Source: Planctomycetota bacterium
Lineage (GTDB): Bacteria > Planctomycetota > UBA1135 > UBA2386
DNA length: 64,000 nt
Direction: 5' to 3'
Assembly: GCA_965228735.1 (NCBI GenBank)
Contig: OZ245838.1
Location: forward strand, 2,304,001-2,368,000
Shown here: positions 13,435 through 37,589 of the stretch, one piece after another
How the letters are laid out: every line of letters begins with the position of its first letter
Numbering within the stretch: position 1 is the first letter of the stretch
The notes under the pieces: model-generated
Told to the model about the DNA's origin: nothing
Database searches by the model: none
Seen by the model: only the letters and a program-made list of their open reading frames with translations
Position numbers and translations under genes: made by a program

Positions 13435-15350
<1,916 letters not shown>

Positions 15351-15354
<4 letters not shown>

Positions 15355-16043: not shown

Positions 16044-16135
16044 CGCTGAAGGAGAATCGGGCGGGACGCGGCAGAAAGCAACTGTGGGAATCGAGCGCCG
16101 CGGCGATCGCGCGGCAGCCGACGAGCGAATTTCGC

Positions 16136-16169
16136 CGAAGTCGACGGTAAGGCGAAGTCGACGGTAAGG
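16136..16169. repeat. Perfect 17-bp tandem duplication (CGAAGTCGACGGTAAGG)x2 upstream of sdhC
   Basis: Copies at 16136-16152 and 16153-16169. Confidence 0.85.
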
Positions 16170-16184
16170 CCGCACGGCCGACTG

Positions 16185-17249
16185 CTACGGCAACCGCAGC
16201 AGCGTCACGTTCCCCGAGAACCCGACCACGACGATCTCACGCGTCGTCGGATCGCCGTCGAGCTCACCGCTCGTGGCGTGGTGCAGCGCGTCGGTGTCCA
16301 GCTCGGTGTGCACGGGCAGCCACCTCGACTCGTCGCCGTTGCTCGCGAGCACCGTCAGCCGTTTGGCGTAGCCGACCGTGACGGCCTCGCGCCCCGGCAG
16401 CTCGGGATCGAGGTCGGCGAGCACCGCGCCGCGCAGCTTGAGCTCTTCCCGATGGATCGTGTCCTGCCGGCCGTCGCGAAAGAAGTGCAGCGTGCCGTCG
16501 TCGCAGCAGAACAGCAGCGCGTCGCCGTCCGCACCGATCCGCGCGACGCCGGTGTCACCCTCGAGCAGCAGCTTGGCCGCGAGCTCGCCGCCGACCGGAC
16601 GACACAGGTGGATCGCGCCGTCGGAGCCGCCGACGGCGACGCCGCCCTGGAACGGCGTCGCGCACTTGCCCGGTCCGGAGATCCTCGCACTGCCGAGCTC
16701 GCGCCACGCGCCGCCCGAATACACCACCTCGCGCACCCGGTTCGAGAAGCCGGCGACCCACACCTCGTTCCCGGCCGCGTTCGGATCGGCATCGGCGACA
16801 CACACGCCGTGCAGCAGGCGCGCGTCGTCGGCGATCTTCTGATGCCGCCACGCGCCGGCCTCGTTCCACACCGCGTACGCGGCCCCGGGCGCGGTCTCGT
16901 CCTCGGCGCCGCGCAGCATGCCGACCGCGATGATCTCGTCGCCCGGGATGTCGGGCCGGACGTCGCCCGTCGTCACCTGGATCATCTCACCGGGCAGCGT
17001 CACGGCGACGACCGCGTCCCAGTAGACGCCGTCGGTCGAACCCATGACCCAGACCTTGCCGTCCGTCGCGGTCGCGACGATCTCGTTCCCGGGCCACTTC
17101 TGCGACACGTCGCCGATCGCGCAGCCACCGAGGCCCGCATCCGCGCGCAGGATGACCGAGCTCTGCCAGTCCGCGGTGAGCGGCGCCGTGCCGCACGCGG
17201 CCAGAAGCAGGAGAAGAACGAGAGCGAGCGGAGTTCGCGCCTGAGTCAT
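16185..17249 (-). CDS. Lipoprotein with FG-GAP-like propeller repeats
   Basis: ATG 17249 and lipobox LAAC. Repeats [38 protein letters not shown] and [13 protein letters not shown]. Confidence 0.75.
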
Positions 17250-17268
17250 TGGGAGAGAGTTGCAGCCG

Positions 17269-20200: not shown

Positions 20201-20352
20201 AACGCGCTGATCCCGCTGCCGGGGTTCGCCGAGCTGCTGCTGACCAGGTTGTCGACGAGGTTCTGGGCGGTGGCCGCACCGGCCAAATTGATGGCGGCCA
20301 GACCGGTGGCGGCCACGACCGCGAGAGATGGACGGACGGGGAGGCGAAGCAT
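17269..20352 (-). CDS. ELWxxDGT-repeat surface protein with shared C-terminal domain
   Basis: About 17-18 repeats of G.E(L/P)W.(T/S)DGT.AGT. Signal peptide from ATG 20352 ending AATAQ. Confidence 0.9.
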   Translation of the reverse strand: MLRLPVRPSLAVVAATGLAAINLAGAATAQNLVDNLVSSSSANPGSGISAFHVLGGVAVFSPNGPFGREPWVTDGTVAGTHILSDLNPAGSSNPTDFVELNAELLFAANVPGLGVELWKTDGTTAGTVLVKNVRPGASAAISGLVRLGNYVYFSANDGSNGIELWRTDGTTAGTTLFVDVNPGLASGNVDQLVVTPGHIWFAANDGTHGTELWRSDGTVAGTTMVADLDPTGGTIINTIAPFGNGVLFVADDGSGIGREPYFSDGTASGTVLLGDLKPGTLGSTASDFLDAGAFAVFAADDGTNGRELWLTDGTAAGTQLVDINPVGNSFVGHFVAWQGEVLFSVDDSVHGRELWHTDGTVAGTQLLIDINPGSAHSSPQGFGQIGNELWFQANAGSLGTEFHRTDGTAAGTVLVADLAPGVFGTHPDAITELAGNVLFAGLVGNAGDEPAITDGTLPGTALLADCSPPFDGSFPDEFVTVNGLTLFAAGSNSSGREPWITDGTPAGTGIVADVYAGSFGSNPDYFASTGATAFFSGNTSGGRQLFATDGTTAGTLQLTTLANNYDPRGMTAFGDLVVFSGNAGGSGGSGREPWVSDGTVAGTFELLDIKPGLGNSIGLLAEDFTPVSDLVFFSADDGTHGREPWVTDGTAAGTMLLVDIRPGAASSNVSQFTAVGDRVFFRAFDGSTGNELWVSDGTAAGTVLVADLVPGVGGGTPLEVTAAANGVYFTATVGGSREIWFSDGTAAGTHQITTWGAGLFHAYTELTWTNLGLFFVSDDGTGSGAELWFSDGTTAGTQMVLDIGPGEADGVVSGTLTAVLGGSQLLFGAGSPQDGLELWISNGTAAGTTKVTNFGPPGRGAAELSDFYDAGAVVYFACNDGVVGSEPWIYDPTTAGVAFVLPYGEPCDGTNGAPIIGTVGLPQLGNAGFQITVDDAAPLSFALQVISFAPASIYWAPGCRQYVANPTLPGLSLVTDASGYGGAGMAIPSDPSYLGLNLFYQWAIVDAGGGILGAFSTTGALQVVLGN

Positions 20353-20470
20353 GGTCAATCGAGAAGGGCGCGCCGACGGGCAACGCACGCGGAAACGCGC
20401 GACCATCCTACCCGCCACGACGATTTCGGCGAAGCCGACCGGCGGGGCCGACCGCACCCGATGCCGCCCA

Positions 20471-21856
20471 TTACTGCACGACGTCTCGGATCGCGTTGCC
20501 GAGCACCGGCGGCCGCAGCGGGTCCAGCGTCAACGCCTGGTAGTGCAGTTCGAGCCCGACGAGGCCGGCCTGGTTCGGGATCGGGAACGTGACGTTCACG
20601 CCACCGTTCGTCGCCATCAGCAGCGGCAGGGGCACCGCGGCGGCAGGCAGCAGACGCAGCGTGCCGAGGCCCGGGATCGGCTGGCTCGCGCCCGCGGTGC
20701 TCACCGCCGCGAGCACCGGCGTCGACGCCGAATCGCGCGGCACGACGAACTCGACGGTGTAGGGCTGGCCGAGCTGCGGTGCTGCCGGCGAATCGACCTG
20801 ACGTTGCGCGTTCGTCGCGATCATCCACGGCCCGACGAGGTCGAGATCGCGATCGCCGTCCACGTCGATCAGGACCATGTCGGAGCCCAGCCCATTCAGC
20901 CCGGGGGTCGGGCGCGTCGTGAAGTTGCCGAGGCCGTCGTGCTCGTGCACCCGACCCGCGCTGATGAGGTCGAGGTCGCCGTCCTCGTCGTAGTCGAGCG
21001 CGAATCCGACGCTCTGGACCTGGAGGTTCGACGGGTTGGCGAACGCCATGCCGCCGAGGTTGCGGCGGAACCGGCCGTCCGCCCAGATCAAATCGATCCG
21101 GCCGTCGCCGTCGAGGTCGCCCGGGACGAACCGCCCCGCCAGGTTGAGGCCCAGCAAGGTGAACACGGCGTTGCCCTGGTTGACGAAGATCGCCCCGGGC
21201 CCCCACCGGCTCGGCAGCACGATGTCGAGGTCGCCGTCCTGATCGAGGTCCGCGGCGAAACAGCCCGACTGTTGACCCGACGCACCGGCCGTCGTTCCCG
21301 GCAGGTTCGTCGCGGACACATCCGTGAACACCCCGGTGCCGTCGTTGAGGTAGAGCCGCGTCGACGACGCCGCCTGCACGAGCCAGTCGACGTCGCCGTC
21401 GCCGTCGAAGTCGCCGACGACCTGGTCGACGCTCCAGTCCGCGTTCGCCGGCAGCGCGGTCGCCGAGACGTCGACGAACGTGCCGTTGCCGGTGTTGAGG
21501 TGGACCCGGTCCGGCACGTTGTGGTCGTTCACCACGAGCAGATCGAGGTCGCCGTCGCCGTCGAGGTCAGCGAGGTCGACGGCATAGGACGCGTTCGAGG
21601 CCGGGGTCGTGAGGCGGCCGGCGGTGGCATCGACGAAGGTGCCGCGACCGTCGTTGAGCCACAGCTCGTTCGGGCCGTAGTCGTTGGCGATCACGAGATC
21701 GGGGTCGCCGTCGCCGTCGACGTCACCCGCCGCCACGTTGTAGCCGTAGACGATCGGGGGCAGCGAGTGGTGCCGGGTCGTGCGGAACGGATCCTGCGCC
21801 GCGACGCAGGTCGCGAGCAGCAGGCCCGGGAACAGCAGCTTGTCCGAGGGGATCAT
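20471..21856 (-). CDS. FG-GAP/VCBS-repeat secreted protein with shared C-terminal domain
   Basis: Repeated (G/A)DxDGDGDxDL motifs plus LxLNxGxGxFxD. Signal peptide ending VAAQ. Confidence 0.88.
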   Translation of the reverse strand: MIPSDKLLFPGLLLATCVAAQDPFRTTRHHSLPPIVYGYNVAAGDVDGDGDPDLVIANDYGPNELWLNDGRGTFVDATAGRLTTPASNASYAVDLADLDGDGDLDLLVVNDHNVPDRVHLNTGNGTFVDVSATALPANADWSVDQVVGDFDGDGDVDWLVQAASSTRLYLNDGTGVFTDVSATNLPGTTAGASGQQSGCFAADLDQDGDLDIVLPSRWGPGAIFVNQGNAVFTLLGLNLAGRFVPGDLDGDGRIDLIWADGRFRRNLGGMAFANPSNLQVQSVGFALDYDEDGDLDLISAGRVHEHDGLGNFTTRPTPGLNGLGSDMVLIDVDGDRDLDLVGPWMIATNAQRQVDSPAAPQLGQPYTVEFVVPRDSASTPVLAAVSTAGASQPIPGLGTLRLLPAAAVPLPLLMATNGGVNVTFPIPNQAGLVGLELHYQALTLDPLRPPVLGNAIRDVVQ

Positions 21857-21949: not shown

Positions 21950-22978
21950 ATGCCGACCCGGATTTCGACCGTCGTGCTGCGGTACGTGTTCGCCACCGCG
22001 CTCGCTGCCACGTTCGCGACGACGAGCGTGGCGCAAACGCCCGACGCCCCGCCGCGCCGCCTCGGCGTGTTCTTCTGGCACGACTCCCCCAACGACCGCG
22101 CGACGTTCGAGGGCATCCAGCTCGGGCTGCGCCAGGCGGGCATCCCCGTCGACTGGCTCGAGCGCGAAGCCGACTCCGACGAAGCGCGCGCCGAGGCGAT
22201 GTTGCGCGAGCTGGCCGACTCGGACCGCGAACTCGTGTTCGTCATGGGCACCACCGCGGCGCTGCTCGCGAAGCAGGTGATCCAGGACAAGCCCGTCGTG
22301 TTCGCCGCCGTGAGCGACCCGGTCGCGTCGGGCGTCGTGCCGTCGTGGCTCGGCTCCGACCAGGACAACCTGTGCGGCGCGACCAACTGGATCTCGCCGC
22401 AGAACGTGCTCGACGTGTTCGACCTCGCGGTGCCGCGGCTGCGGAAGCTCGGGATGCTGCGCTCGGAGAGCGGCACCGTCGTGAGCCGCGCCGAGCTCGC
22501 GCGGATGCGCACGTGGCTCAGCGCCCACCCGAAGACCGAGATCGAGCTCGTCGAGTCGATGACCCCGGACACCGCCGGCATCGGCGCCGCGGTCCGCCGG
22601 CTCATCGCGGCCGAGGTCGACGCGATCTGGATCCCGATCGACCTCACGATCTACAGCAACCTGCGGGCGGTGCAGCGCGCGCTCGGCGAACGCAAGATCC
22701 CGCTGCTCACGACGGCCGCGGCCGGGGTGCGGAGCGGCGCCGTCGTCGGCACGATCGCGGACTACCCGCTGCACGGTCGGCGCGCGGCGAACGTCGCCGC
22801 GCAGGTGCTGCTGCACGGCAAGCGCCCGCGCGACCTGCCGATCGACCGCATGGCCGGCAACCTCGTCGTCGTCAACCTCGGCGTCGCGCGCGAGCTCGGC
22901 CTCGAGCTGCCGCTCTCGCTCCTCGTGCTCGCCGACCGGCTCGTCGACGATCGCCCCGCTGCCGGAGCCCCCAAGTGA
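21950..22978 (+). CDS. Periplasmic solute-binding protein (ABC_sub_bind/TrpX-like), probably a co-sensor of the downstream kinase
   Basis: ATG 21950 with signal peptide. Motifs KPVVFAAVSDPVASGVV and VVNLGVARELGLELP are typical of the ABC_sub_bind family. Stop overlaps the kinase GTG. Confidence 0.82.
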   Translation: MPTRISTVVLRYVFATALAATFATTSVAQTPDAPPRRLGVFFWHDSPNDRATFEGIQLGLRQAGIPVDWLEREADSDEARAEAMLRELADSDRELVFVMGTTAALLAKQVIQDKPVVFAAVSDPVASGVVPSWLGSDQDNLCGATNWISPQNVLDVFDLAVPRLRKLGMLRSESGTVVSRAELARMRTWLSAHPKTEIELVESMTPDTAGIGAAVRRLIAAEVDAIWIPIDLTIYSNLRAVQRALGERKIPLLTTAAAGVRSGAVVGTIADYPLHGRRAANVAAQVLLHGKRPRDLPIDRMAGNLVVVNLGVARELGLELPLSLLVLADRLVDDRPAAGAPK

Positions 22979-24456
22979 CGAGCGACTCGCCCCGCACCGA
23001 CGCCCGGCTGCGCCTGTCGCACTGGCTGGCCGCAGCGCTCCTGCTGTTCGCCGCCGCGTTCGCGGCCGTGCTCATCGTCTGGATCGGCCCGCGCACCGAG
23101 GCCGCGATGCGCGAGCACGGCACGCAGCTCATGGAGCAGAGCTCGGCCGCAGCACGGTCGATCGCGGCCGCGCAGACCCAGACGACGGGTGCCTTGCTCG
23201 ATGACCTCATCGAGCACGGTGCGCGCGTTCGCCAGCGCACGCTCAGCGATCTGCCGCTCGAGCTGTTCGGCGGCGACGTCGAAGCGATCCGCCGAGCGAT
23301 CGGCGCCGAGGACGCGCGCCGCAGCGCGCAGCAGCAGCAGAACGTCGCGGTCCTCGCCCGCGAGATGCAGGACCGCGCCGAACGCCGTATCCAGCAGAAG
23401 TTCGACGAGCTCGTCGCGGTGCAGAACGTGCTGCTCCGCAACGTCGCGAGCGACCTGCGCATCACCCACCTGGCGCTCACGGGCAGCGCGCTCGCGCTGT
23501 TGCTCGTCGTGCTCGGCATCGGCCTGTCGCGCCTCGTCGTGCTGCCGACCCGCGCGCTGCGCGCCGCGACCCGCCGCGTCGCGGACGGCCAGCTCGACAC
23601 CGACGTGCCCCGACCGGCCGGCACCGAGCTCGGCGATCTCACCCGCGACTTCGGACGCATGGTCGACGAGCTGCGCCAATCGCGCCAGCAGCTGCAGCAT
23701 CAGAGCGAGAACCTCGAGCACGAGGTCGCGCGCAAGACGGCCGAGCTGCGGCAGTCGCACAAGAAGCTCGCGGAGACCGAACGGCTCGCGGCGCTCGGCA
23801 CGCTCGCGGGCGGCATCGCGCACGAGTTCCACAACGTGATCGGCGGCATCCGCGGCTGCACGCAGGAACTCAGCAAGGACGAACGTGACGCCGATCGCCA
23901 GGAGACGATGCAGGTCATCCTGCGCGCCGCGGATCGCGCGAGCGGCATCGTGCAGCAGCTCACGCGGTTCGCGCGCCGGACGGTCGAGCAACGCGCCGAG
24001 GTCGAGCCGCTGCAGGTGGTCGAGGACGCGCTGCGACTGTGCGAGCCGGCGGCGCGCCGGCAGAACGTGACCGTCGAGCGCGAACTCGCGGCGATCGAAC
24101 CGTTCGTCGGCGACGCGGACGGCCTGCACCAGATCGTCGTCAACCTGCTGCTCAACGCGGTCCAGGCGATGCCCGACGGCGGCACGCTGCACGTCACGCT
24201 CCGAGACACCGGCGACATGGTCACGATCCGCGTCGCCGACACCGGCGTCGGCATCGCGGAGGCCGACCTCGCGCACGTTTTCGAACCGTTCTTCACGACG
24301 CGCAAGGACCCCGACCAGGCCGGCACGGGTCTCGGCCTGTCGGTGTCGTACGGCCTCGCCACGGCGCACGGCGGCCGCATCACCGTCGAGTCCACGCTCG
24401 GCGAAGGCGCGATTTTCACGGTCGAATTGCCGCGGGTCGCGCCCACCGGCGACTGA
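22975..24456 (+). CDS. Sensor histidine kinase (2 TM, HAMP, HisKA, HATPase; NtrB-like)
   Basis: H-box GIAHEFHN, N-box NLLLNAVQAM, DTGVGI, FEPFFTT and GTGLGL. GTG start at 22975. Confidence 0.92.
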   Translation: MTSDSPRTDARLRLSHWLAAALLLFAAAFAAVLIVWIGPRTEAAMREHGTQLMEQSSAAARSIAAAQTQTTGALLDDLIEHGARVRQRTLSDLPLELFGGDVEAIRRAIGAEDARRSAQQQQNVAVLAREMQDRAERRIQQKFDELVAVQNVLLRNVASDLRITHLALTGSALALLLVVLGIGLSRLVVLPTRALRAATRRVADGQLDTDVPRPAGTELGDLTRDFGRMVDELRQSRQQLQHQSENLEHEVARKTAELRQSHKKLAETERLAALGTLAGGIAHEFHNVIGGIRGCTQELSKDERDADRQETMQVILRAADRASGIVQQLTRFARRTVEQRAEVEPLQVVEDALRLCEPAARRQNVTVERELAAIEPFVGDADGLHQIVVNLLLNAVQAMPDGGTLHVTLRDTGDMVTIRVADTGVGIAEADLAHVFEPFFTTRKDPDQAGTGLGLSVSYGLATAHGGRITVESTLGEGAIFTVELPRVAPTGD

Positions 24457-24581
24457 TCGACCCGCCCAGTGTTACGCCCGCGGACACCGGTGTCACAGAT
24501 CGATGACACTCGGGCGAACCGCGCCAAAGCGCCGCGAACACACCGCTTGCCAAAGCCGCTCGGGCCGGTCAGCATCGCTGC

Positions 24582-26051
24582 GTGCCAGCTGACGACCCAG
24601 CCGACGACCCAGCCGCCGCGAGCCCGCCCAGGGGCAGCGGAGCCGAGCGGCCGCCGGTGCGCCTGCTGCTCGCCGACGACGAGGAGAGCATGCGGCACTT
24701 CCTCAAGGCCGGGCTCGAGCGGCTCGGCTACGCGGTCGACGTCGTCGGTGACGGCGAGGAGGCGGCCTCGCGCTGGCTGCAGCAGCCCTACGACGTCGGC
24801 GTGTTCGACCTCAAGATGCCGAAGGTCGACGGCGTCGCGGCGCTTTCCAGGATCAAGAGCAGCGATGTGGACGCGGTGATCGTGCTCATGACGGCGCACG
24901 GCACGATCGCGACGGCCGTCGAGGCGATGCAGCTCGGCGCGGCGGACTACGTGACCAAGCCGTTCGAGCTCGACGAGCTGCAGATGCGGCTCGAGCGCGC
25001 GCTCTCCCAGCGCGCGACGGTGCGCGAGAACCAGACGCTGCGGCAGATGCTCGGCGACGTCGAGGGCGGCCTCGGGCTCGTGGCGCAGAGCCCCGCGATG
25101 GCCCACATCGCACAGCAGGTCGAGCTCATGGCGGAATCGACCGCCACGGTGCTCATCGGCGGCGAATCGGGCACGGGCAAGGGCCTCGTGGCCAAGGCCA
25201 TCCACCGCGCGTCGGCCCGCCGGGACGGGCCGTTCATCGCGCTCAACTGCGCCGCGGTGCCCGACAACCTCGTCGAGAGCGAGCTGTTCGGGCACGAACC
25301 CGGCGCGTTCACGGGCGCGGTGAAGAGCAAGGCCGGCCTGCTGCAGCGGGCCGACGGCGGCACGGTCTTCCTCGACGAGATCGGCGACATGAGCCTCGCG
25401 GCGCAGGCCAAGATCGAGGGCTTCCTGCAGGACCGGCGCGTGCTGCGGCTCGGCGGCGAGGCCGCGGTCGAGGTCGACGTCCGCGTGCTCGCGGCCAGCA
25501 ACCGCGACCTGCACGCGCTGGCCGAGGACGGCGCGTTCCGGCCCGAGCTGCTGTGGCGGCTCGACGTGCTCAACCTCACGGTGCCGCCGTTGCGCGACCG
25601 GCGCGAGGACATCGCGGTGCTGATCGCGCGCACGCTCGAACGGCTCGCGAGCGCCGATCGGGCCCGCCGCACGATCACGCCGGAGGCGATCGGCGCGCTC
25701 ACGGCCCACGACTGGCCCGGCAACGTGCGCGAGCTCGAGAACACGATCGAACGCATGGTCGCGCTTTCGGGCGAGCGTACGAGCCTCGGTCTGGCCGACC
25801 TGCCGGCCGAACTGGGACAGGAGGGCGACGAGGCGTCACGCCAGGGTAACGACAACTACGAGGCCGCGCGGCGCCGCTTCGACCGGATCTACTTCAAGAA
25901 CCTGCTCGTCGAGTGCGGCGGCAGCATCACGGCGGCCGCGCAGCGCGCCGGGATCTCGCGCGGACACCTGCACCGGCGCCTGAAAGAGCTCGGCACCGAC
26001 ATCGACGCGGCCCGCGCGGCGGCCAAGAGCGACGAGAAGCGACCCGGCTGA
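24582..26051 (+). CDS. Sigma-54-dependent response regulator (NtrC/AtoC family); true start may be slightly downstream
   Basis: Receiver domain (LADDE, FDLKMP, TKPF), AAA+ domain (GESGTGK, ESELFGHEPGAFTGA, FLDEIG, WPGNVRELEN) and Fis-type HTH. Confidence 0.94.
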   Translation: MPADDPADDPAAASPPRGSGAERPPVRLLLADDEESMRHFLKAGLERLGYAVDVVGDGEEAASRWLQQPYDVGVFDLKMPKVDGVAALSRIKSSDVDAVIVLMTAHGTIATAVEAMQLGAADYVTKPFELDELQMRLERALSQRATVRENQTLRQMLGDVEGGLGLVAQSPAMAHIAQQVELMAESTATVLIGGESGTGKGLVAKAIHRASARRDGPFIALNCAAVPDNLVESELFGHEPGAFTGAVKSKAGLLQRADGGTVFLDEIGDMSLAAQAKIEGFLQDRRVLRLGGEAAVEVDVRVLAASNRDLHALAEDGAFRPELLWRLDVLNLTVPPLRDRREDIAVLIARTLERLASADRARRTITPEAIGALTAHDWPGNVRELENTIERMVALSGERTSLGLADLPAELGQEGDEASRQGNDNYEAARRRFDRIYFKNLLVECGGSITAAAQRAGISRGHLHRRLKELGTDIDAARAAAKSDEKRPG

Positions 26052-26060
26052 GCCCGCCGT

Positions 26061-26076
26061 TGGCACACCTGTTGCA
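26061..26076 (+). promoter_or_regulatory. Sigma-54 (-24/-12) promoter
   Basis: TGGCAC-ACCTG-TTGCA matches the TGGCAC-N5-TTGCW consensus exactly. It lies directly downstream of a sigma-54 activator gene and upstream of an operon. Confidence 0.85.
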
Positions 26077-26088
26077 CTACGGCGAGCG

Positions 26089-27105
26089 ATGACCCCCTCC
26101 TCGCACTGCACCGCAAAGCTTCGCGCTCGCTCGCTGCCGGCCGGCCTCGCCACCATCGCGACCTTGATCGTCGCGGTCCCCGGCTGCGTCGAGCTGTCTA
26201 CGCGCACGTCGTCGGACACGCCAGTCACCATCGCCGAGCCGCGGGTCGAGCAGCCGGCCGTGACCGCGGATCGGCCGGCCGAACTGCCGGGCCTGCACAA
26301 CGTCGTGACCTACAGCCCGGGCATGTTCAGCGGCGGCGCGCCGGTCGGCCGCGCCGGCCTCGAAACGCTCCGGACCCTCGGCGTGAAGACGGTCGTGTCC
26401 GTCGACGGCGCGACGCCCGACGTCGCGACGGCGGAGGAGCTCGGGCTGCGCTACATCCACCTGCCGATCTCGTACGACCGCGTGCCGGCCGAGCGCCGCC
26501 TCGAGCTCGCGCAGGTCGTCGCAAACGCCGAAGCGCCGATCTACATGCACTGCCACCACGGCAAGCACCGCAGCGCGTCGGCGCTCGCGACCGCGCTCGT
26601 GACGGCGGGCGTGCTGTCACAGCAGGAGGCCGGCGAACGGATGCAGACGTCGGGCACGTCGGCCGGCTACCGCGGACTCTGGGGATCGCTCTCGGAGTGC
26701 ACCGCGGTGAGCCGGAGCGAGCTCGCGGCCGACATCACGGACACGAGCCGTTTCCCCGCCGTCGCGAACGTGACGGGTCTCGTCGCGACGATGGCCGAGC
26801 TCGACGTGCTGTTCGACGACATCGAGTACAGCAAGGACGAGAACTGGAACACGCCGGCGGACCACCCGGACTTCGTGCCGGCCAACGCGACGCAGCGCGT
26901 GCACGAGCTGTTCGCGGCGCTGCTCGAGGACCCCGAGAGTCAGGCGCTGCCGGCGAGCTACCAGACGCAGCTGCGCGCCGCGATCGATCAGAGCAAGCAG
27001 CTCGACGCCGCGGTGCGGAGAAAGGACCTGCCGCGCGCGAACGAGCTGTACGAGCAGATGGCGCAGGGTTGCAAGGCCTGTCACAAGACCTACCGCAACC
27101 AGTAG
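26089..27105 (+). CDS. Exported protein-tyrosine-phosphatase-fold (CX5R) domain fused to a C-terminal cytochrome c'-like domain
   Basis: Probable lipobox VPGC. PTP/DSP-fold motifs LGVKTVVSV, GLRYIHLPI and MHCHHGKHRS. Helical C-terminus ending CKACHKTYRN. Confidence 0.8.
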   Translation: MTPSSHCTAKLRARSLPAGLATIATLIVAVPGCVELSTRTSSDTPVTIAEPRVEQPAVTADRPAELPGLHNVVTYSPGMFSGGAPVGRAGLETLRTLGVKTVVSVDGATPDVATAEELGLRYIHLPISYDRVPAERRLELAQVVANAEAPIYMHCHHGKHRSASALATALVTAGVLSQQEAGERMQTSGTSAGYRGLWGSLSECTAVSRSELAADITDTSRFPAVANVTGLVATMAELDVLFDDIEYSKDENWNTPADHPDFVPANATQRVHELFAALLEDPESQALPASYQTQLRAAIDQSKQLDAAVRRKDLPRANELYEQMAQGCKACHKTYRNQ

Positions 27106-27157
27106 CCTCGGCGCTTCGGCCCTGACGTCCAACCCATCCCGAAGTCGCCCGATCCCC

Positions 27158-28189
27158 ATGAAGCACCTGCCTCTCACCATCACCATCACGGCGGCGTTCC
27201 TGCTGCCCTCGTGCAGCACTGAAGCCACGACGGGCGCCGGCCCGACGATCCGCGTCGCGCTCGACCAGCAGTTCTCGCAGCCGCTGCTCAACGGTTTCGC
27301 CGACGAGCTCGGCATCGCGATCCACCAGATGCACGACACCGAGGGCGCCAAGACCGTCGGTCACACGAGCGCGATCAAGACCGAGGCGTCGGCGCCGCGC
27401 TGCTCGATCTTCTGGAACAACGAGCTCGCGAACACGATCCACCTCGCCCACCTCGGCCTCGTCGAGCCCTACGTCTCGCCCGCGGCGAAGGACATCCCCG
27501 CGCGCTGGAAGGACGCGGGCGGCATGTGGACGGGTTTTGGCGCCCGCGCCCGCATCCTGATCGTCAACACCGACCTCGTGCCCGACAAGTCCGAGTGGCC
27601 GTCGAGCTACCAGGACCTCGTCGATCCGAAGTGGAAGGGCCGTTGCGCGATCGCCAAGCCGCTCACGGGCACGACGCTGACGCACTTCGCCGCCCTGCGC
27701 AAGGAGCTCGGCACTGAGCAGCTCGACGAGCTGTTCGATCAGATGGAACAGAACGACGTCAAGTTCCTCGCGAGCAACGGCGCGACGATGAACCAGGTGC
27801 GCGAAGGCAAGCTCGCGTGGGCGTTCACCGACACGGACGACTACAACGTCTGCAAGTCCAAGGGCTTCCCCGTCGCGTGCGTCTACCCCGACCAGGGCGA
27901 AGGGCAGATCGGCACGATGCTGATCCCCAACTCGGTGTGCCTCGTCAAGGGCGGCCCGGATCTCGAAGCGGCGAAGAAGCTCGTCGACAAGATCCTCGCG
28001 CGCTCGACGGAAGAGGCGCTCGCCGCGTCGCGCAGCGCGCAGATCCCGGTGCGCGAGGGCATCCAGGGCCCGAGCAACGCCGAGGTGCTGACGATCGGCA
28101 AGTTCCGCGAGATGGACTGGGACCCGCAGTGGGTCGGCGAGAACCTCGCGGAGTGCACGGCGGCGTTCGCCAAGCGGTTCCAGCTGTAG
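27158..28189 (+). CDS. Fbp/Afu-like ABC transporter substrate-binding lipoprotein
   Basis: Lipobox LPSC. Motifs WTGFGARARILIVNT, DLVDPKWKG, YPDQ...GTMLIPNSV and QIPVR. Confidence 0.85.
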   Translation: MKHLPLTITITAAFLLPSCSTEATTGAGPTIRVALDQQFSQPLLNGFADELGIAIHQMHDTEGAKTVGHTSAIKTEASAPRCSIFWNNELANTIHLAHLGLVEPYVSPAAKDIPARWKDAGGMWTGFGARARILIVNTDLVPDKSEWPSSYQDLVDPKWKGRCAIAKPLTGTTLTHFAALRKELGTEQLDELFDQMEQNDVKFLASNGATMNQVREGKLAWAFTDTDDYNVCKSKGFPVACVYPDQGEGQIGTMLIPNSVCLVKGGPDLEAAKKLVDKILARSTEEALAASRSAQIPVREGIQGPSNAEVLTIGKFREMDWDPQWVGENLAECTAAFAKRFQL

Positions 28190-28220
28190 GTCCGCCACAG
28201 GACCCAGCCGAAGGCCCGCC

Positions 28221-29828
28221 GTGAACCGCACCGCGACGAACATCCTGGCCCGCGCGCCGCTCTGGCTCGCGCTGCTGTTCGTCGCGCTCTTCGTGCTGCT
28301 GCCGCTCGCCGAACTGTTCGTCGGCACGTTCTGGTCGACGGACGGCCTCACGCTGTCGGCGTGGGCGGCGCTCGGCGACGACGAGAACCTGTGGAAGCAG
28401 CTCGTCGCGTCGCTCCGGCTCGGCGTCGCCGCGACCGCGATCTCGCTGCTCCTAGGCGGCGGGCACGCGCTCCTGACGATCGGCCGTGACCTGCCCGGCG
28501 CCCGGGTGCTCGGGCCGCTCGGCATCGCGCCCCTCGTGGTGCCGCCGATCTTCGTCGCGATGGGCTTCGCCGACCTCGGCGCGACCGACGGCTTCTGGCC
28601 GTGCGCTTGGCTGCTCGGCGTCTGCCACGCGCCGTTCGTCGCGGTGCTCGCGGCGCGCGGGCTGCGCGCGGCCGACGGTCGCGCCTATGAGTCGGCGCTG
28701 CTGCTGCGCGGTCGCGCGCGCGCCGAACTGCAGCTGCTGCGCACGATCGCGCCCGAGCTCGTCGCCGGCTGCCTGCTCGCGTTCCTGTTCACGCTCGCCG
28801 ATCACGGCGTGCCGGAGTTCCTGACCGTCAAGGGCAAGACCTGGCACACGTATGCCGAGGGGCTGTTCAGCCGCTGGACGCGGCGCGCGGTCGGCACGAG
28901 CTTCGCGGACCTGCAGAGCCCGATCGTCGCGGCGATCCCGTTCGTGATCGGTCTCGCTGGCTGCCTGTGGCTCGCGCTGCGGCTGCGCGCGCACGCGCCA
29001 GACCGCGGGACGGTGACGCCGCTGCCCCTGCGCCCGCTCGGCCGCTGGCGCTGGCCCGCGCTGCTCGTGCCGGTGACGTATCTCGCGGCCGGCATCGGGG
29101 TGCCCGTGCTCGTGCTCACGCGCTGGGCCATGGGCTCCGCGCAGCGCAACGAGCCGATGTCGCTCGCGTTCATGCAGCAGAGCTTCGGCAAGGCGATGGA
29201 CCAGGGTCTGCCGGAGCTGCTGAACTCGCTGTGGCTCGCCGGCATGGTCACGCTCGTCGTCGTGCTCTGCGCGATCCCGCTGGCGCGCACCGTCGCGCGC
29301 AAGCGCCCCGGCCTCGAGCTCGTCATCGCGATCCCGGTCGCGCTGCCGGCCGTGCTGCTCGGCATCGCGCTCGTCGATTCGTGGCACGACAGCGGCGTGA
29401 TGCGCCGGATGGGCGACTTCTACTCCGGCTGGGGCTTCGCCGTCTGCGGCTACGCGGCGCGCTTCCTGCCGTTCGCGGCGCTGCCGCTCGCCGGTCTCGT
29501 GCGACGCCAGGCCCTCGCGACCGAGGAGGCCGCGGCGCTCGCCCCGCGCTCTCTGATCGCGCGGGCGTTCTACATCCACCTGCCGCCGCTGCTGCCGGGC
29601 ATCTGGACGGCCGCGGTGCTCACGTTCGTGCTCGCGCTGCGGGAGCTCGACCTCGCCGTCGTTCTGCCGGCCGCGAACGCAACCGCGGTGCGCCGGCTCG
29701 CCAACGCGGTGCACTTCCAGCACGAGGATTGGAGCGGTGTCATCGCGCTGCTGCTGCTGTCGCTGGCCGTGCTCCTCCCCCTCCTTCCCTCCCTCCTCGC
29801 CGGCCGTAGGCTGTCTTCCCTGTCGTGA
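28221..29828 (+). CDS. FbpB-like ABC transporter permease (duplicated TM domain)
   Basis: Many TM helices, two EAA-like loops (YESALL, TEEAAAL) and FVLALRELD. Confidence 0.82.
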   Translation: MNRTATNILARAPLWLALLFVALFVLLPLAELFVGTFWSTDGLTLSAWAALGDDENLWKQLVASLRLGVAATAISLLLGGGHALLTIGRDLPGARVLGPLGIAPLVVPPIFVAMGFADLGATDGFWPCAWLLGVCHAPFVAVLAARGLRAADGRAYESALLLRGRARAELQLLRTIAPELVAGCLLAFLFTLADHGVPEFLTVKGKTWHTYAEGLFSRWTRRAVGTSFADLQSPIVAAIPFVIGLAGCLWLALRLRAHAPDRGTVTPLPLRPLGRWRWPALLVPVTYLAAGIGVPVLVLTRWAMGSAQRNEPMSLAFMQQSFGKAMDQGLPELLNSLWLAGMVTLVVVLCAIPLARTVARKRPGLELVIAIPVALPAVLLGIALVDSWHDSGVMRRMGDFYSGWGFAVCGYAARFLPFAALPLAGLVRRQALATEEAAALAPRSLIARAFYIHLPPLLPGIWTAAVLTFVLALRELDLAVVLPAANATAVRRLANAVHFQHEDWSGVIALLLLSLAVLLPLLPSLLAGRRLSSLS

Positions 29829-30910
29829 CCGTTTCCGTCGCTGTTTCCGATCTCGTGTGCCGCCGCGGCGGCGGGCGCGACGCGTTCACCCTCGGCCCCG
29901 TGTCGTTCACGGCCGCGGCCGGGCAACGCGTCGCGATCGTCGGCCCGTCGGGCTCCGGCAAGACGACGCTGCTGCGTTGCCTCGCCGGCCTCGAACGCGC
30001 GACGAGCGGCACGATCGAGCTCGACGGCAAAGTCGTCGCGGACGGCGGTCGGGTGCACGCGGCCCCGGACGCGCGCGGCCTCGGCCTCGTGTTCCAGGAA
30101 GGCGCGCTCTGGCCGCACCTGAACGCGCTGCAGCACCTGCGCTTCGCCGCCCCGGGGATCACGGACGACCGCTGCCAGGCGTTGCTCGAACGCGCGGACA
30201 TCGCGCACCTCGCAGCTCGCAAGCCGGCGCAGATGTCGGGCGGCGAAGCCCAACGCCTCGGCCTGCTGCGCGCGATCGCGCCCGAGCCGGGGCTGCTCTT
30301 GCTCGACGAACCGCTGCGCAGCGTCGACGTGCACCTGCGCGACGGCCTCGTGCTGCTCGTGCGCGAGCTCGCGGACGAACTCGGGCTGACGACGATCCTC
30401 GTGACCCACGATCGCGACGAGGCGCTCGCGCTCGCGACCGATCTCGTCGTGATGCACGAGGGGCACGTCGTCGAACGCGGCAGCGCCGGCGAGCTGCTGC
30501 GGGCGCCGCGCTGCGCGTTCACGGCGGCGTTCCTCGCGGGCGCGGCCTGCCTGCCGACCACCGCCGGCACGGCGGATTCGGTCGAAACGACGTTCGGCAC
30601 GTTCGCGCGCCCGGGCGGCGCGGGTGCCGGCGGCGATGCGGGAGCCGAGCTGCGGCTCGTCCTCATGCCCGGCGACCTCGCGGCGACCGCCGCCAACGGT
30701 CAACCGACTTCCTGTCCGCGCGGCAACGTGCTGCAGAGTCAGCCGAGCGCGGACGGCTTTTCCAATCGCATTGCTCTCGGCGATCACATCGTGTTCGCGC
30801 GCAGCGACGAGCTGCTCGCGGCAGGATCATCCGCAGAACTGCAACTCAGGAGCACGCCACGGCTCCTGCCCTGGCAGACTGCCGACACTCAGACGGAGGC
30901 AGACTCGTGA
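29825..30910 (+). CDS. FbpC/PotA-like ABC transporter ATP-binding protein
   Basis: Walker A GPSGSGKTT, VFQEGALWPHL, signature MSGGE, Walker B LLLLDEP and VTHDRDEA. GTGA overlaps at both ends. Confidence 0.9.
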   Translation: MTVSVAVSDLVCRRGGGRDAFTLGPVSFTAAAGQRVAIVGPSGSGKTTLLRCLAGLERATSGTIELDGKVVADGGRVHAAPDARGLGLVFQEGALWPHLNALQHLRFAAPGITDDRCQALLERADIAHLAARKPAQMSGGEAQRLGLLRAIAPEPGLLLLDEPLRSVDVHLRDGLVLLVRELADELGLTTILVTHDRDEALALATDLVVMHEGHVVERGSAGELLRAPRCAFTAAFLAGAACLPTTAGTADSVETTFGTFARPGGAGAGGDAGAELRLVLMPGDLAATAANGQPTSCPRGNVLQSQPSADGFSNRIALGDHIVFARSDELLAAGSSAELQLRSTPRLLPWQTADTQTEADS

Positions 30911-31950
30911 ACTTCTCGGCCCGACTCGGCATCGCAGTCGGCGTGCTCGTCGCGTTCGGCGGCGCGATCGCGTTCTTGTCCGCGACGGACACCGGCAGCG
31001 CGCGCGCCGCGCAGACCGTCCGGTGGGAATCCTCGGCGCAGTGCCAGGAATGCCACCAGGACGTCTACGACGAGTGGCACGGCTCGCACCACCAGATCGC
31101 GTTCACCAATCCCGAGGTGCGCAAGCTCAGCGACGACTTCCGCAAGGAGGAGTGCATGGACTGCCACCTGCCGCGCCCGCTCGCGCTGACGGGCTTCGGG
31201 AATCGCACCCTGCCGCGCCGAACGCACTTCGACGAGGGTGTGAGCTGCATCAGCTGCCACCTCGCTCCGGACGGCGGCATCGTCGCGCGCAACGACCGGC
31301 CCGAGGTGCCGTGTGCGCCGCAGAAGAACGCCGACTTCATCGCCGTGAAGGCCTGCGCATCGTGCCACAACCAGCACTGGACGACCGATCAGTGGCGCGA
31401 CAGCTCGTACGCCGCGCAGGGCGTCGACTGCAGTTCGTGCCACATGCCCGAGGTCACGCGCGTGCGCAAGGACGGCAGCAAGCGCATGGGCCGCAGCCAC
31501 GTGTTCCCGGGCGGTCACGACAAGGCGATGCTGCAGTCGGCCGGCAAGTTCGAGGTCGCGCGCGAGGGCGACCAGGTCGCGTTCACGCTGACCAACGTCG
31601 GCGCGGGCCACAACTACCCGACCGAGGAGCGGCACCGCGCGGTCGACATGAGCTATCGGTTCCTCACCGCGGCCGACGTGGCCGCGGAACAGGCCGCCGA
31701 GTCCAACGGCGAGTGGACGCTGGCCTACCGCTTCCGCATGCCCTACCGCGACGAGGCGACGCCCGTCGGCCCGCTCGCGGAGTCGCAGGAGAACACGCAA
31801 CTCCCCGCCAACGCGAGCAAGACGATCCGGATCGACATCCCGGCCGATGCGGTCGCGATCGAGGCCCGGTTGTGGTACCGACTGACGCCGTTCGTCGGCG
31901 ACGACAGTCCGATGAGCACCCTCCTCGAAGAACGGCGGCTCGACCTATGA
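30907..31950 (+). CDS. Pentahaem c-type cytochrome (cytochrome c554-like), exported or membrane-anchored
   Basis: GTG 30907 and a hydrophobic N-terminus. Five CxxCH motifs (CQECH, CMDCH, CISCH, CASCH, CSSCH). C-terminal beta domain containing GAGHNYPT. Confidence 0.88.
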   Translation: MNFSARLGIAVGVLVAFGGAIAFLSATDTGSARAAQTVRWESSAQCQECHQDVYDEWHGSHHQIAFTNPEVRKLSDDFRKEECMDCHLPRPLALTGFGNRTLPRRTHFDEGVSCISCHLAPDGGIVARNDRPEVPCAPQKNADFIAVKACASCHNQHWTTDQWRDSSYAAQGVDCSSCHMPEVTRVRKDGSKRMGRSHVFPGGHDKAMLQSAGKFEVAREGDQVAFTLTNVGAGHNYPTEERHRAVDMSYRFLTAADVAAEQAAESNGEWTLAYRFRMPYRDEATPVGPLAESQENTQLPANASKTIRIDIPADAVAIEARLWYRLTPFVGDDSPMSTLLEERRLDL

Positions 31951-33218
31951 TGCGTTCGACCCATTGCCGTGCCGGCGCGCTCATCCTGCTCACGGGTTGG
32001 ATCGGATTCGCCAGCTGCGCGAACGAGGCCGCGGCCAAGCCGCAGGGCCCCGACTTGCCCGCGCCGAAGCTCACCCCGTTCATCGACGAGCTCAAGGCGA
32101 TGCGGGCCGCGCAGCCGCAGCCCGACGAAGCCGCCCAGCGCGAACTGAAGCAGTACGCGGACGTCGCGCTCGGCATCGTCGAGGGCGACGCCCGCATCAC
32201 GGCCCGCGCCGAACGCGCGCTGCTCGAGCACCCGTTCGCGTGGCACCCGCTCGAGCAGGCGCTCGAACACGAGGACGTCGCTGTCCGCCGGCGCGCGGCG
32301 TGGCTCTGCGGCAAGTCGGGCCACGGCGAGCTGCAGCTGCCGCTCGTGATCCGCTTCAAGTACGAGAAGGACCCCGAGGCCGTCGTCTGGATCGCGGACG
32401 CGCTGCAGAAGCTCGGCAACGACTCGGGCGCGGCGTGGCTCGACGCCGCGATGAGCAACGAGGCGACCGCGGAGGTCGCGGGCCAGCGCGCGATCGAAAT
32501 CTGCAACGCGCGCGGGATCGAGCTCAGCGAGAGCCCGACCTACGTCGAGCTGCGCGGCGCGATGCAGGACATCCACGCAGCCTGGCTGAGTCAGGGCAAG
32601 GGCGGCAACCCCGACGTCGAGCCGCCGAGCGGCATCCACCTCGACGCCAGGCTCGCCAAACGCCTCGCGACGACCGAGCTGACGTACCTGCGGCCGATCG
32701 ACGACGCGAAGTACATCCTCACGCGCTGCGGCCGGCTCGCCGTGCCGCTGCTCGAACGCGCGCTCGGAGCTTCCGAGCACTATCTGCGAACCGTGTCACT
32801 GCACGTTCTGCAGGCCCTCGGCCCGTGCGCGAGCTCGACGGGCCCGGCCGTTCGCAAGCTGCTCGGCGACCCGATGACGCGCACCTACGCGGTCCGCACG
32901 CTCGGCGAGATCGGCGACACCGACGCGCTGCCCGTGCTGCGCCAACTGCTCGACGCGATCGAGATCGAGTCGCGCGCCGAAGCCGCCTACGCGCTCGGCC
33001 TGCTGCGCGACGAGCAGAGCCGCGACATCCTCGGCAAGAAGCTCGCGGACGAGACCGAGGCCATGGACGTGCGCGTCAACGCCGCGTTCGCGCTGCTCTG
33101 CTTCGGCGAGCACCCGGAGGCGACCGCCTTCCTGCAGCAGCGCGAGGAGAAGGGCGACTACCACGCCCCGACGCTGCGCCGTCTGCGCGACCGCCTCGCC
33201 ACGCTCGCGAAAGGGTAG
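31947..33218 (+). CDS. HEAT-repeat lipoprotein
   Basis: ATG 31947 overlaps the cytochrome stop. Lipobox FASC. HEAT-like repeats VRRRAAWLCG, RTYAVRTLGEIG, RAEAAYALG and VRVNAAFAL. Confidence 0.8.
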   Translation: MMRSTHCRAGALILLTGWIGFASCANEAAAKPQGPDLPAPKLTPFIDELKAMRAAQPQPDEAAQRELKQYADVALGIVEGDARITARAERALLEHPFAWHPLEQALEHEDVAVRRRAAWLCGKSGHGELQLPLVIRFKYEKDPEAVVWIADALQKLGNDSGAAWLDAAMSNEATAEVAGQRAIEICNARGIELSESPTYVELRGAMQDIHAAWLSQGKGGNPDVEPPSGIHLDARLAKRLATTELTYLRPIDDAKYILTRCGRLAVPLLERALGASEHYLRTVSLHVLQALGPCASSTGPAVRKLLGDPMTRTYAVRTLGEIGDTDALPVLRQLLDAIEIESRAEAAYALGLLRDEQSRDILGKKLADETEAMDVRVNAAFALLCFGEHPEATAFLQQREEKGDYHAPTLRRLRDRLATLAKG

Positions 33219-33236: not shown

Positions 33237-33353
33237 GTGGCGGTACCGAACCCGCTTCGAATCCGCCACACCCCGCCGACAGCAATCCTGCGTCGATGTG
33301 CCGGTTGCGCCGTCGACACGGTGGCGGATTCGAAACGGGTTCGGTATCGCCAC
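33237..33353. repeat. REPIN-like element, copy 1 (inverted 33-bp palindromic units with 51-bp spacer)
   Basis: 33237-33269 GTGGCGGTACCGAACCCGCTTCGAATCCGCCAC versus the reverse complement of 33321-33353, 31/33 identical. Confidence 0.85.
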
Positions 33354-33364
33354 GTCGCGCGGGG

Positions 33365-33943
33365 TCAGTCGCTCTCGGCCTTCGTCTGCAGCGGCGCTTT
33401 GCCGATCGCTACGAGAGTGCGCATCGCGTCCGCGGCGCGCACGTCGAGCCGATGGAGCGTTGCCGGGTCGGCGAACACGAGGCGGCCCGAGGTCGGCGTC
33501 GGCGCGCTCGGCACGAACACCAACGTGCGGCGCACGCCGTCCGGACCGTCCGCTTCGCCCGTGACGAGCCCCATCTCGTGTCCGCTCTCGGTCGGCACGA
33601 GCACGACGCCGTGGAAGAACTTGTCGCGGCCGGAGTCGTAGCCGAGCAGTTCCTTCAGCGACTGATACATCGGGCCGAGCAGCGGCAGGCTCTCGAGCAC
33701 GCGGTCGAACACCTTCCACAGCACCTTGCCGAGGTAGGTCGTGACGAACAGACCGCACAGGTAGACGAGCAGCACCGCGGCCAGGAGCCCGACGCCGGGG
33801 AAGTACCACGGCTGATCGACGAGCCACGACGCTGCGATACTCGCCTCGAGCTGCACGACCAGGAAGATCGTGCCGCCGATCGGCAGGAGCGCGACGACGC
33901 CCGCAACGAGGCAACGACTGATGTGACGCAGGGGCTTCTTCAT
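33365..33943 (-). CDS. DUF502 family membrane protein
   Basis: AGVVALLPIGGT, LPLLGPMYQSLKEL, VFVPSAPTPTSGRL and DAMRTLVAIG. Confidence 0.85.
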   Translation of the reverse strand: MKKPLRHISRCLVAGVVALLPIGGTIFLVVQLEASIAASWLVDQPWYFPGVGLLAAVLLVYLCGLFVTTYLGKVLWKVFDRVLESLPLLGPMYQSLKELLGYDSGRDKFFHGVVLVPTESGHEMGLVTGEADGPDGVRRTLVFVPSAPTPTSGRLVFADPATLHRLDVRAADAMRTLVAIGKAPLQTKAESD

Positions 33944-33989
33944 GGCGACTCCGATCGCGGCGTACCGCACGCCGGCATCGGGCGCCTGG

Positions 33990-34889: not shown

Positions 34890-37589
<2,700 letters not shown>

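Follow-up and report, generated by a model that had tools for sequence, protein, structure and literature searches.

A conserved operon linking an ABC importer to a pentahaem cytochrome within a sigma-54 regulon of exported proteins in Planctomycetota

What does an importer of the ATP-binding cassette (ABC) type do when its genes are tied to those of a multihaem cytochrome, and what switches it on? The question is raised by nine co-oriented genes, g1 to g9, at 21950-33218 of a 64,000-nucleotide stretch of DNA from a Planctomycetota bacterium (the window), which covers positions 2304001-2368000 of a single 7.19-Mb contig. They encode, in this order, a solute-binding protein, a histidine kinase and an NtrC-type activator (g1-g3), a phosphatase-cytochrome fusion (g4), a second binding protein with its permease and ATPase (g5-g7), a pentahaem cytochrome (g8) and a HEAT-repeat lipoprotein (g9). 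An earlier reading of the letters (the original prediction) had taken them for a self-contained sigma-54 regulon. We conclude that the locus is real and well conserved, and that it encodes an ABC import system, presumably redox-assisted, which has not been described and which belongs to a new sigma-54 regulon. Its architecture, that is a five-gene core, a shared enhancer box and a wider regulon, we regard as very probable; for its function we tentatively favour redox-assisted import, the cargo being a metal-oxyanion complex and the metal probably iron, bound to an anion of the phosphate type.

We compared the surroundings of orthologue-level g8 matches at 55 loci, hand-picked across the families of the order as a subset of the matches listed. 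The gene order g5-g6-g7-g8-g9 on one strand was found at 53 of them, the other two losing g5 at a contig end. The g8 family was detected in 150/151 genomes of the order (E 1e-20), in a minority as a fused paralogue only. The core was also intact in genomes of 1.5-2.5 Mb, and its retention even there, in a large and mostly uncultured order (perhaps OM190/Saltatorellota-like), suggests that it probably does something basic. Matches to g4 were present in 123/151 genomes (E 0.001), some of them to the phosphatase domain only, and g4 lay within 8 kb of the core at only 3 of the 55 loci. Among 18 genomes of the same family, fetched around the best g4 matches, g4 was directly 5' of g5-g9 in 16. All nine genes stood together in four, and in one more that is cut by a contig end; five lacked g1, six carried g4-g9 without a nearby regulator, and two carried the regulators and g4 without the core. 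Conservation of the gene neighbourhood, which the original prediction had proposed as a check, therefore extends to g5-g9 and not to the nine-gene block: g5-g9 form a conserved five-gene core from which g4 is separable. At the level of the phylum, the g5 family was found in 124/201 genomes and the g8 family in 73/201; outside the order, 57 of 62 g8-positive genomes also held the g5 family, with both within about 5 kb in 23. Since the genomes are kin, none of these conservation counts are independent trials.

A perfect -24/-12 promoter had been announced before g4, and the site is indeed a strict one (TGGCAC-N5-TTGCW), one of ten in the 7.19-Mb genome. Such a site preceded g4 at 29/29 loci and g5 at 26/53 order-wide loci, the controls giving 2/55, 0/55 and 123/5500. 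This distribution indicates that the promoter belongs to the core and that g4 lies between the two in one clade. In promoters without an adjacent g3, an unbiased dyad count returned GTT-N10-AAC in 23/34, compared with 0.5 in shuffles. Scanning the genomes of the order for the fuller palindrome GTTHC-N6-GDAAC (box 1) with a sigma-54 site 25-55 nt beyond it yielded 170 matches, spread over 79/151 genomes; the reversed pattern yielded two. By family, the combination occurred in 40/42 genomes of f9, 8/41 of f10 and 0/11 of f7. It also stands just before a stand-alone g4 in about 14 f9 genomes (translation confirmed for L227 and L251), which indicates that regulation is shared by g4 and the core also where the two are not linked. 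The strict combination had no match in the window's own genome, where a looser scan found a box at 8/114 promoter-like sites, compared with 1.5% of random places. When g3 lies beside the promoter, box 1 is found upstream of g3, about 1.6 kb away, at a position weight matrix (PWM) score of at least 12 in 15/21 related loci, compared with 2.2% of random 500-nt windows, and a second palindrome (box 2) follows it 21 nt later. The copy of box 1 in the window is degenerate, its right half having decayed; the original prediction had noted neither of these boxes in the gap between g2 and g3. A better-scoring site inside g3, 226 nt 5' of the promoter, is a possible substitute enhancer, weakly conserved in that only one scanned relative scores similarly there. 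Many targets of the pattern start 12-13 nt past the sigma-54 site, as does g4, so that nearly leaderless mRNAs are predicted.

The operon is likely switched on via this sigma-54 enhancer, shared by many exported-protein genes, and not only by the neighbouring regulators. A self-contained regulon does not agree with the counts: g1 was found in 25/151 genomes of the order and the sensor domain of g2 in 28/151, yet neither was found in any of the 42 genomes of f9, the family in which box and promoter are nearly universal, and the activator does not co-occur with promoter and enhancer. The genes g1 and g2 are accessory, outside the conserved core. That g1-g3 are nevertheless the sole cognate controllers of the promoter at 26061 seems improbable to us. 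It would account for the place of g3, immediately 5' of the promoter in most members of the clade, and for box 2, an intact palindrome that tracks the kinase (near the core promoter at 5/13 kinase-positive versus 1/40 kinase-negative loci) and is a candidate g3 site. Moreover, at nine of 40 g5-family loci taken from other orders, a kinase and a REC-Fis regulator that lacks the AAA+ domain stand 5' of the g5-family gene, frequently accompanied by a g1-like gene (g1-g2-regulator-g5 or g2-regulator-g5), and because box 1 has decayed in the window genome, g3 may dominate here. Against sole control, promoter and box 1 persist where g1-g3 were not found, including the same-genus genome G093. Of the predicted sigma-54 control, the conserved site and the presence of rpoN (5/5 genomes tested) stand, and control by the neighbouring regulator alone is unsupported. 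In the loci with the AAA+-less regulator (L157, L159-L162, L164, L185-L187) no permease was nearby, and three of them also hold a larger pentahaem gene.

The window genome encodes about 22 full-length sigma-54 activators and two rpoN genes (C1:258549-260030 and 6643601-6644983). In a quick tree of activators, with f9 sampled by four genomes (84-89% complete), g3 formed a clade of its own without f9 members, and no g3 orthologue was present among the activators of those four genomes. Because g1 and the g2 sensor domain were never found in f9 and no activator of these four genomes groups with g3, the reader of box 1 is likely another activator. Our first candidate, by inference, is a conserved activator that adjoins rpoN in 4/4 f9 genomes and has its window-genome orthologue at C1:6823082-6824455. 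No sigma-54 site was consistently present immediately upstream of g3, and no autoregulatory box scoring above 12 was seen near candidate activators in 28 loci.

The scope of the regulon was read from 70 fetched box-and-promoter loci. Sorted into crude motif classes, the 73 targets comprised 25 HEAT-repeat secreted proteins, 11 FG-GAP proteins, five TonB receptors, five g5, two g4, two cytochromes and 23 others, and 69 of the 73 have a hydrophobic N-terminus. The TonB receptors had their best matches in haem-type and FecA-type models, below cut-off; a CobN/BchH-like gene is also a target. The motif GTTHC-N6-GDAAC lists a whole exported-protein regulon. The arrangement resembles that of the PEP-CTERM regulon, to which it does not belong and in which, according to the available text of PMC1569441, an enhancer and a sigma-54 site precede many exported-protein genes. 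The PrsK/PrsR motif described in that text ends in TTTACA, whereas box 1 is palindromic, and the regulon found here also holds a transporter and cytochromes. As to g3 itself, PrsR was rejected (354 bits against a cut-off of 502.6). The likeness suits an account in which the regulon builds a surface layer, g4 is a haem-gated TpbA-like protein phosphatase, and the transporter supplies or senses Ca, Mg or Mn for the FG-GAP proteins. The exported character of the targets, the layout shared with PEP-CTERM, the acidic pocket of g5 and the position of TpbA as top sequence and Foldseek match of g4 are all in line with it; the TpbA match is weak, however (E 3e-7, 27% identity), and a pentahaem cytochrome locked to the transporter is left unexplained, so that we consider a purely envelope or signalling role quite unlikely.

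The most conserved targets are HEAT-repeat secreted proteins with HGG-x-Y after the signal peptide and a GILDIL end, often in tandem with a box each (L254:1200-3227, L259, L260, L292). They occur in the window genome near C1 1228419 and 2388438 and have no NCBIfam match. In the window, a propeller-like exported protein without Pfam match (16185-17327, minus strand), whose relatives flank the operon in several genomes, lies next to a long repeat protein (17269-20457, minus strand); relatives of both types are box-and-promoter targets elsewhere (L226, L265, L275). An FG-GAP repeat gene (20471-21856, minus strand), divergent from g1, has a strict sigma-54 site that the original prediction had missed, and no box 1 was found near it.

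Redox-assisted import, which we favour, depends on the nature of g8. The pentahaem cytochrome that had been predicted is borne out by five CXXCH motifs, and these, with an Ig-like C-terminal domain, assign g8 to the PHC pentahaem family. Its closest solved relative is T. tepidum c552 (5ZE8), by sequence, by Foldseek (E 1.8e-10) and by VIA (Z 12.1, root-mean-square deviation 3.3, 130 aligned residues, Ig-like domain only). Profile alignment places MccSep second; MccSep was not among the listed structural matches, which says little because the haem-domain model of g8 is poor. According to the available text of PMC11976967, c552, MccSep and their kin make up the PHC family. Invariant or near-invariant candidates for the distal ligands were found five for five (H62, C136, H157, H198, H235), and g8 is predicted from them to hold four bis-His haems and one His/Cys haem. 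Among 125 five-motif representatives, 96 have a Cys in the C136 segment and 29 do not, many with a His there; several of the 29 were mis-windowed in the segment scan. With 5ZE8, Geobacter MccSep/ExtKL (9WT8) and cable-bacteria sPHC, g8 shares the five CXXCH, the Ig-like C-terminus and one Cys among the predicted distal ligands. It differs in having this Cys between motifs 3 and 4, an N-terminal membrane anchor, a partner HEAT protein and a transporter operon. MccSep, which requires C239 and U325 as far as the available text of 10.1101/2025.11.18.688581 goes, was rejected as an identity for g8: the segment Q-C-C-T of the haem-2 ligand C239 corresponds to Q156-H157-x-T159 (H157 in 62/63), and the Sec/Cys325 loop after GHxxP to P-T-E/D-E-R, without Cys among the common residues at the Sec325 position (0/63). 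g8 is accordingly of interest as a non-selenium, transporter-linked branch of the PHC family.

This kinship is also what recommends a sulfur or toxic-oxyanion function, in which g8 would be a His/Cys-haem enzyme with polysulfide, thiosulfate, selenite or anions of the chromate kind as substrates, g4 would serve as a reductase or to carry persulfide, and the anion would be moved by the importer. In sulfur enzymes, haems with His/Cys ligation have catalytic roles (10.1101/2025.11.18.688581, in part), DUF442 folds tie with the PTP (protein tyrosine phosphatase) matches of g4 and act as rhodaneses (PMC9163753, in part), and a ChrB gene lies upstream in 1/3 anammox-type loci. On the other side stand the His in place of C239, the Cys-less U325 loop, the seven-residue CX5R loop of g4 with a Blh score of 22.8 bits against a cut-off of 625, and the fact that no sulfate- or molybdate-binder matches were found for g5 in NCBIfam. 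We hold such a function to be unlikely.

Fusions of g8 to g9 were found as paralogues of 870-890 residues and in five orthologue-like representatives (HEAT profile 230-358 bits), with no signal peptide seen at the junctions of the latter five; g9 likely holds g8. The fused paralogues (about 880 residues) keep the extra Cys (L149:7827-10448, L152:6476-9133, L143:13948-16581, L150), and one adjoins a different sigma-54 activator. Four ATPase-cytochrome "fusions" (P0127, P0187, P0241, P0244) were not counted, since frameshifts may have produced them.

The cargo should be reflected in g5, which had been called an Fbp/Afu-like binding protein. Its place in the FbpA/AfuA cluster and its anion site were confirmed; it is neither a true FbpA nor a true AfuA or PhnS, being about equally far from ferric binders, AfuA, P5PA and HptA-like chains. 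D36, D60, E62, K65, N88, E89, R130, G171, T172, N207, D225, D227 and D228 are invariant in 55/55 sequences of the order, and the pocket residues in 34-40 of 40 phylum sequences. The iron site of FbpA (His9/Glu57/Tyr195/Tyr196) aligns to D36, N88(/E89) and T226/D227/D228, and true FbpA was rejected on these positions. The synergistic-anion site of FbpA is kept (G171, T172, N207 and R130 in 55/55 and 40/40; R132 also aligned). Membership in AfuA/P5PA/PhnS was rejected as well, the ring-binding His205/His203 being replaced by Asp and the score being 76 bits against a cut-off of 310. The system thus resembles FbpABC, AfuABC, P5PAB and PhnSTU in binding-protein fold, double-domain permease, ATPase and anion-binding helix cap; it differs in that their His/Glu/Tyr/Tyr or His/Asp/Glu ligands give way to an invariant acidic set, and in its fixed link to a pentahaem cytochrome and a HEAT lipoprotein under sigma-54 control. 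A metal-oxyanion cargo would suit a pocket that is acidic and retains the anion site; for this cluster, in which proteins have been misannotated before, the ligand class would be new. At one phylum locus, an RHS-repeat protein with a C-terminal ADP-ribosyltransferase-type domain match lies upstream of the g5-family gene (L165:9584-14395).

The same anion site could serve a metal-free phosphorylated or phosphonate solute, carried as by AfuA, P5PA or PhnS, with g4 as the releasing phosphatase and g8-g9 either supplying the electrons by which catalytic cysteines of the periplasm stay reduced or oxidising the solute. We find this doubtful, while giving it some weight. T170-G171-T172 of g5 is the aligned counterpart of the S-G-T phosphate cap in P5PA (position 170 varies outside the order), the top NCBIfam matches are 2-aminoethylphosphonate transporter parts, and a Pit transporter was not found in 5/5 genomes. 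A second phosphoesterase-cytochrome fusion precedes g5-family genes at 3/40 loci; g4 lies equally near Siw14/PFA-DSP and the other PTP folds, and polyphosphate is a substrate of Siw14 (PMC10653929, in part). The NCBIfam scores, however, are those far under cut-off given above, the His205 of AfuA is an Asp, the seven invariant acidic residues of g5 are better suited to a cation, g4 is rarely near the core, and pho or pst genes were unrecognised among the 73 targets.

For g4, a fusion of a CX5R phosphatase to a cytochrome c' had been proposed. The CX5R fold and the class II bundle stand: a model with a predicted local distance difference test (pLDDT) of 90 shows a PTP domain and a class II four-helix cytochrome c bundle carrying the single, C-terminal CXXCH. 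The loop is HCHHGKHR (C155, kept in 64/65), which together with the fold follows the HCX5R(S/T) pattern of Cys-based PTPs and dual-specificity phosphatases; candidates for the general acid are D106 (invariant) and D130 (less than 90% conserved). The c' label is uncertain because Met235 is invariant (52/52); it could be the sixth haem ligand, and helix 1 was unaligned in one structural comparison of this domain. Foldseek returned TpbA, DUF442 and PFA-DSP, and VIA gave Z 15.8-14.6 to PTP folds and 13.3 to Kusta0087/88, so that the PTP domain ties among VHZ, archaeal PTPs, Siw14, PTPMT1, DUF442 and TpbA. DUF442/Blh sulfurtransferases have a shorter Cys loop; membership in this group was rejected on the seven-residue loop and the Blh score. 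With TpbA of P. aeruginosa, Siw14, PFA-DSP and DUF442, g4 shares the CX5R loop and the fold, and with TpbA also its export; what sets it apart is the class II cytochrome c to which it is fused, with its near-invariant Met235. Upstream of g5-family genes, redox genes turn up repeatedly that belong to unrelated families: g4 itself, a UshA-like PCGC and tetrahaem c554 gene, and EB_dh. The UshA-like gene, a second phosphoesterase-cytochrome fusion, is directly upstream of the core in L180:9123-10478, L173 and L193. In genomes bearing hydrazine synthase, an EB_dh haem-domain gene lies upstream of the g5-family gene at 2/3 loci, and the importer is present with no g8 seen beside it. At these anammox-type loci (L176-L178) the importer follows an MFS (major facilitator superfamily) transporter, an EB_dh or ChrB gene and an unannotated exported protein.

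With a metal-oxyanion complex as cargo, import could proceed as follows. An activator encoded elsewhere would bind GTTHC-N6-GDAAC and drive sigma-54 transcription of the operon together with many exported-protein genes, g1-g3 supplying a second, local input in one clade. Phosphate would be released from phosphoesters or polyphosphate by g4, which shares the regulation of the core without being tied to it, while the haem of g4 would pass electrons to the metal or keep the catalytic Cys reduced. g8 would set the redox state of the cargo in the periplasm, passing electrons to the substrate via four bis-His haems and the predicted His/Cys haem; g5 would bind the product and g6-g7 would import it. 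A cargo whose redox state matters is suggested by the locking of the transporter to a multihaem protein, and iron is the first choice because the g5 site derives from FbpA and the regulon includes haem-type and FecA-type receptors. Several observations weigh against this scheme. At 26/40 phylum loci the g5-family transporter has no cytochrome match within the fetched stretch. The Tyr pair of ferric FbpA is absent from g5, FeoB and a FecCD permease are present in 5/5 genomes tested, and two proteins of the cluster that used to be annotated as iron-binding turned out to have sugar phosphate and pyridoxal phosphate as ligands (PMC8427247, in part). In the model of g8, pLDDT is about 31-56 over residues 31-200 and the model has no haems, so that the haem ligation is predicted from the sequence. 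Finally, no feo, pst or pho genes were recognised among the 73 targets read, and with HEAT-repeat secreted and FG-GAP proteins as the largest classes, and most targets resembling surface proteins, the regulon has the look of a programme for the envelope more than of a response to starvation.

A bolder version of the scheme sees a lineage-defining uptake machine in which a His/Cys pentahaem-HEAT complex, together with fusions of phosphoesterase and cytochrome that can stand in for one another, would free phosphates from Fe(III) by reduction and pass a metal-phosphate complex to a new acidic class of ABC binder, within a new sigma-54 envelope regulon with GTTHC-N6-GDAAC as its enhancer; we think it improbable. 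The predicted outline of sensing, Cys/haem chemistry and import is a fair one and is supported, outside any self-contained unit. In redox-coupled iron importers of the EfeUOB type, too, genes for a periplasmic haem protein, for an acidic binding protein and for a permease stand together. No families are common to the two systems, the present one consisting of an ABC importer and a c-type multihaem cytochrome. The original prediction had not recognised the gene combination as a described pathway, and our literature searches agree: no description of the operon or of the box was found, most subscription papers and all supplements, including the MccSep datasets, being outside the search. The words cytochrome, ABC transporter, iron, phosphatase and HEAT do not occur in the text of 10.1101/817700. 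The parts all come from known families; what the literature searched does not describe is their combination, the enhancer and the near-universal occurrence across the order.

The features of the locus are collected in the table. The nine open reading frames have a common orientation and no internal stops. The 4-bp stop/start overlaps that had been noted were found at g1/g2, g6/g7 and g7/g8 (GTGA) and at g8/g9 (ATGA), the other intergenic gaps being 125, 37, 52 and 31 nt.

Table. Genes and sequence elements of the g1-g9 locus, in positions of the window.
Feature	Position	Strand	Basis or remark
Second strict sigma-54 site	21883-21868	-	11 nt before FG-GAP gene
g1, ABC_sub_bind-family binding protein	21950..22978	+	PF04392 E 2e-39
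g2, membrane histidine kinase, HAMP-HisKA-HATPase	22975..24456	+	Pfam
Box 1 (GTTHC-N6-GDAAC), degenerate copy	24471..24486	.	PWM score 1.8
Box 2 palindrome, 21 nt past box 1	24490..24509	.	Equal spacing in relatives
g3, NtrC-type activator, REC-Sigma54_activat-HTH_8 (Fis helix-turn-helix)	24582..26051	+	Pfam; start codon uncertain
GAFTGA motif of g3, intact	25302-25319	+	Open reading frame sequence
Box-1-like site inside g3	25835..25850	.	PWM score 13.0
Sigma-54 -24/-12 site before g4	26061..26076	+	Strict TGGCAC-N5-TTGCW
g4, predicted lipoprotein, PTP-like and Cytochrom_C_2	26089..27105	+	Pfam, model
g5, lipoprotein binding protein, SBP_bac_6, FbpA/AfuA cluster	27158..28189	+	Pfam; core gene
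g6, double-domain type I permease	28221..29828	+	NCBIfam below cut-off; core gene
g7, ABC ATPase, ABC_tran	29825..30910	+	PF00005 E 7.8e-32; core gene
g8, membrane-anchored pentahaem cytochrome, c554-like, Ig-like C-terminal domain	30907..31950	+	Core gene
Cys136 of g8, between motifs 3 and 4	codon 31312-31314	+	Invariant 63/63
g9, HEAT-repeat lipoprotein	31947..33218	+	Pfam; core gene; g8-g9 fusions occur
REP/REPIN-like inverted repeat, flanked by convergent genes	33237..33353	.	33-nt arms; genome-wide repeat

The nearest solved chains of g1 are 3lft, 6hni and 3lkv, and g1 is likely the sensor input for the kinase g2. g3 has all the parts of an NtrC-type activator (REC, AAA+ and Fis domains), including the intact GAFTGA that had been reported. 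g6 had no Pfam match and met PhnU2/ModB-type NCBIfam models below their cut-offs (PhnU2 E 5.5e-19); its residues E475 and H498 are invariant, as are the Walker A/B, signature and H-loop motifs of g7. An Rfam search upstream of the operon at eight loci returned no RNA family, riboswitches included, and an ESM Atlas look-up gave generic names only.

The REPIN said to close the unit is a real inverted repeat, with 33-nt arms that are 94% complementary. Its arms have 117 matches of at least 22 nt in the genome, forming 44 inverted pairs as REPINs do, and the repeat is therefore genome-wide and not specific to g1-g9. Beyond it, a DUF502 gene (33365-33970, minus strand) recurs near the operon or g4 in relatives, and so do two further genes of the window which, from sequence features, we take to encode aconitase (34890-37589, plus strand) and succinate dehydrogenase (13435-16175, minus strand).

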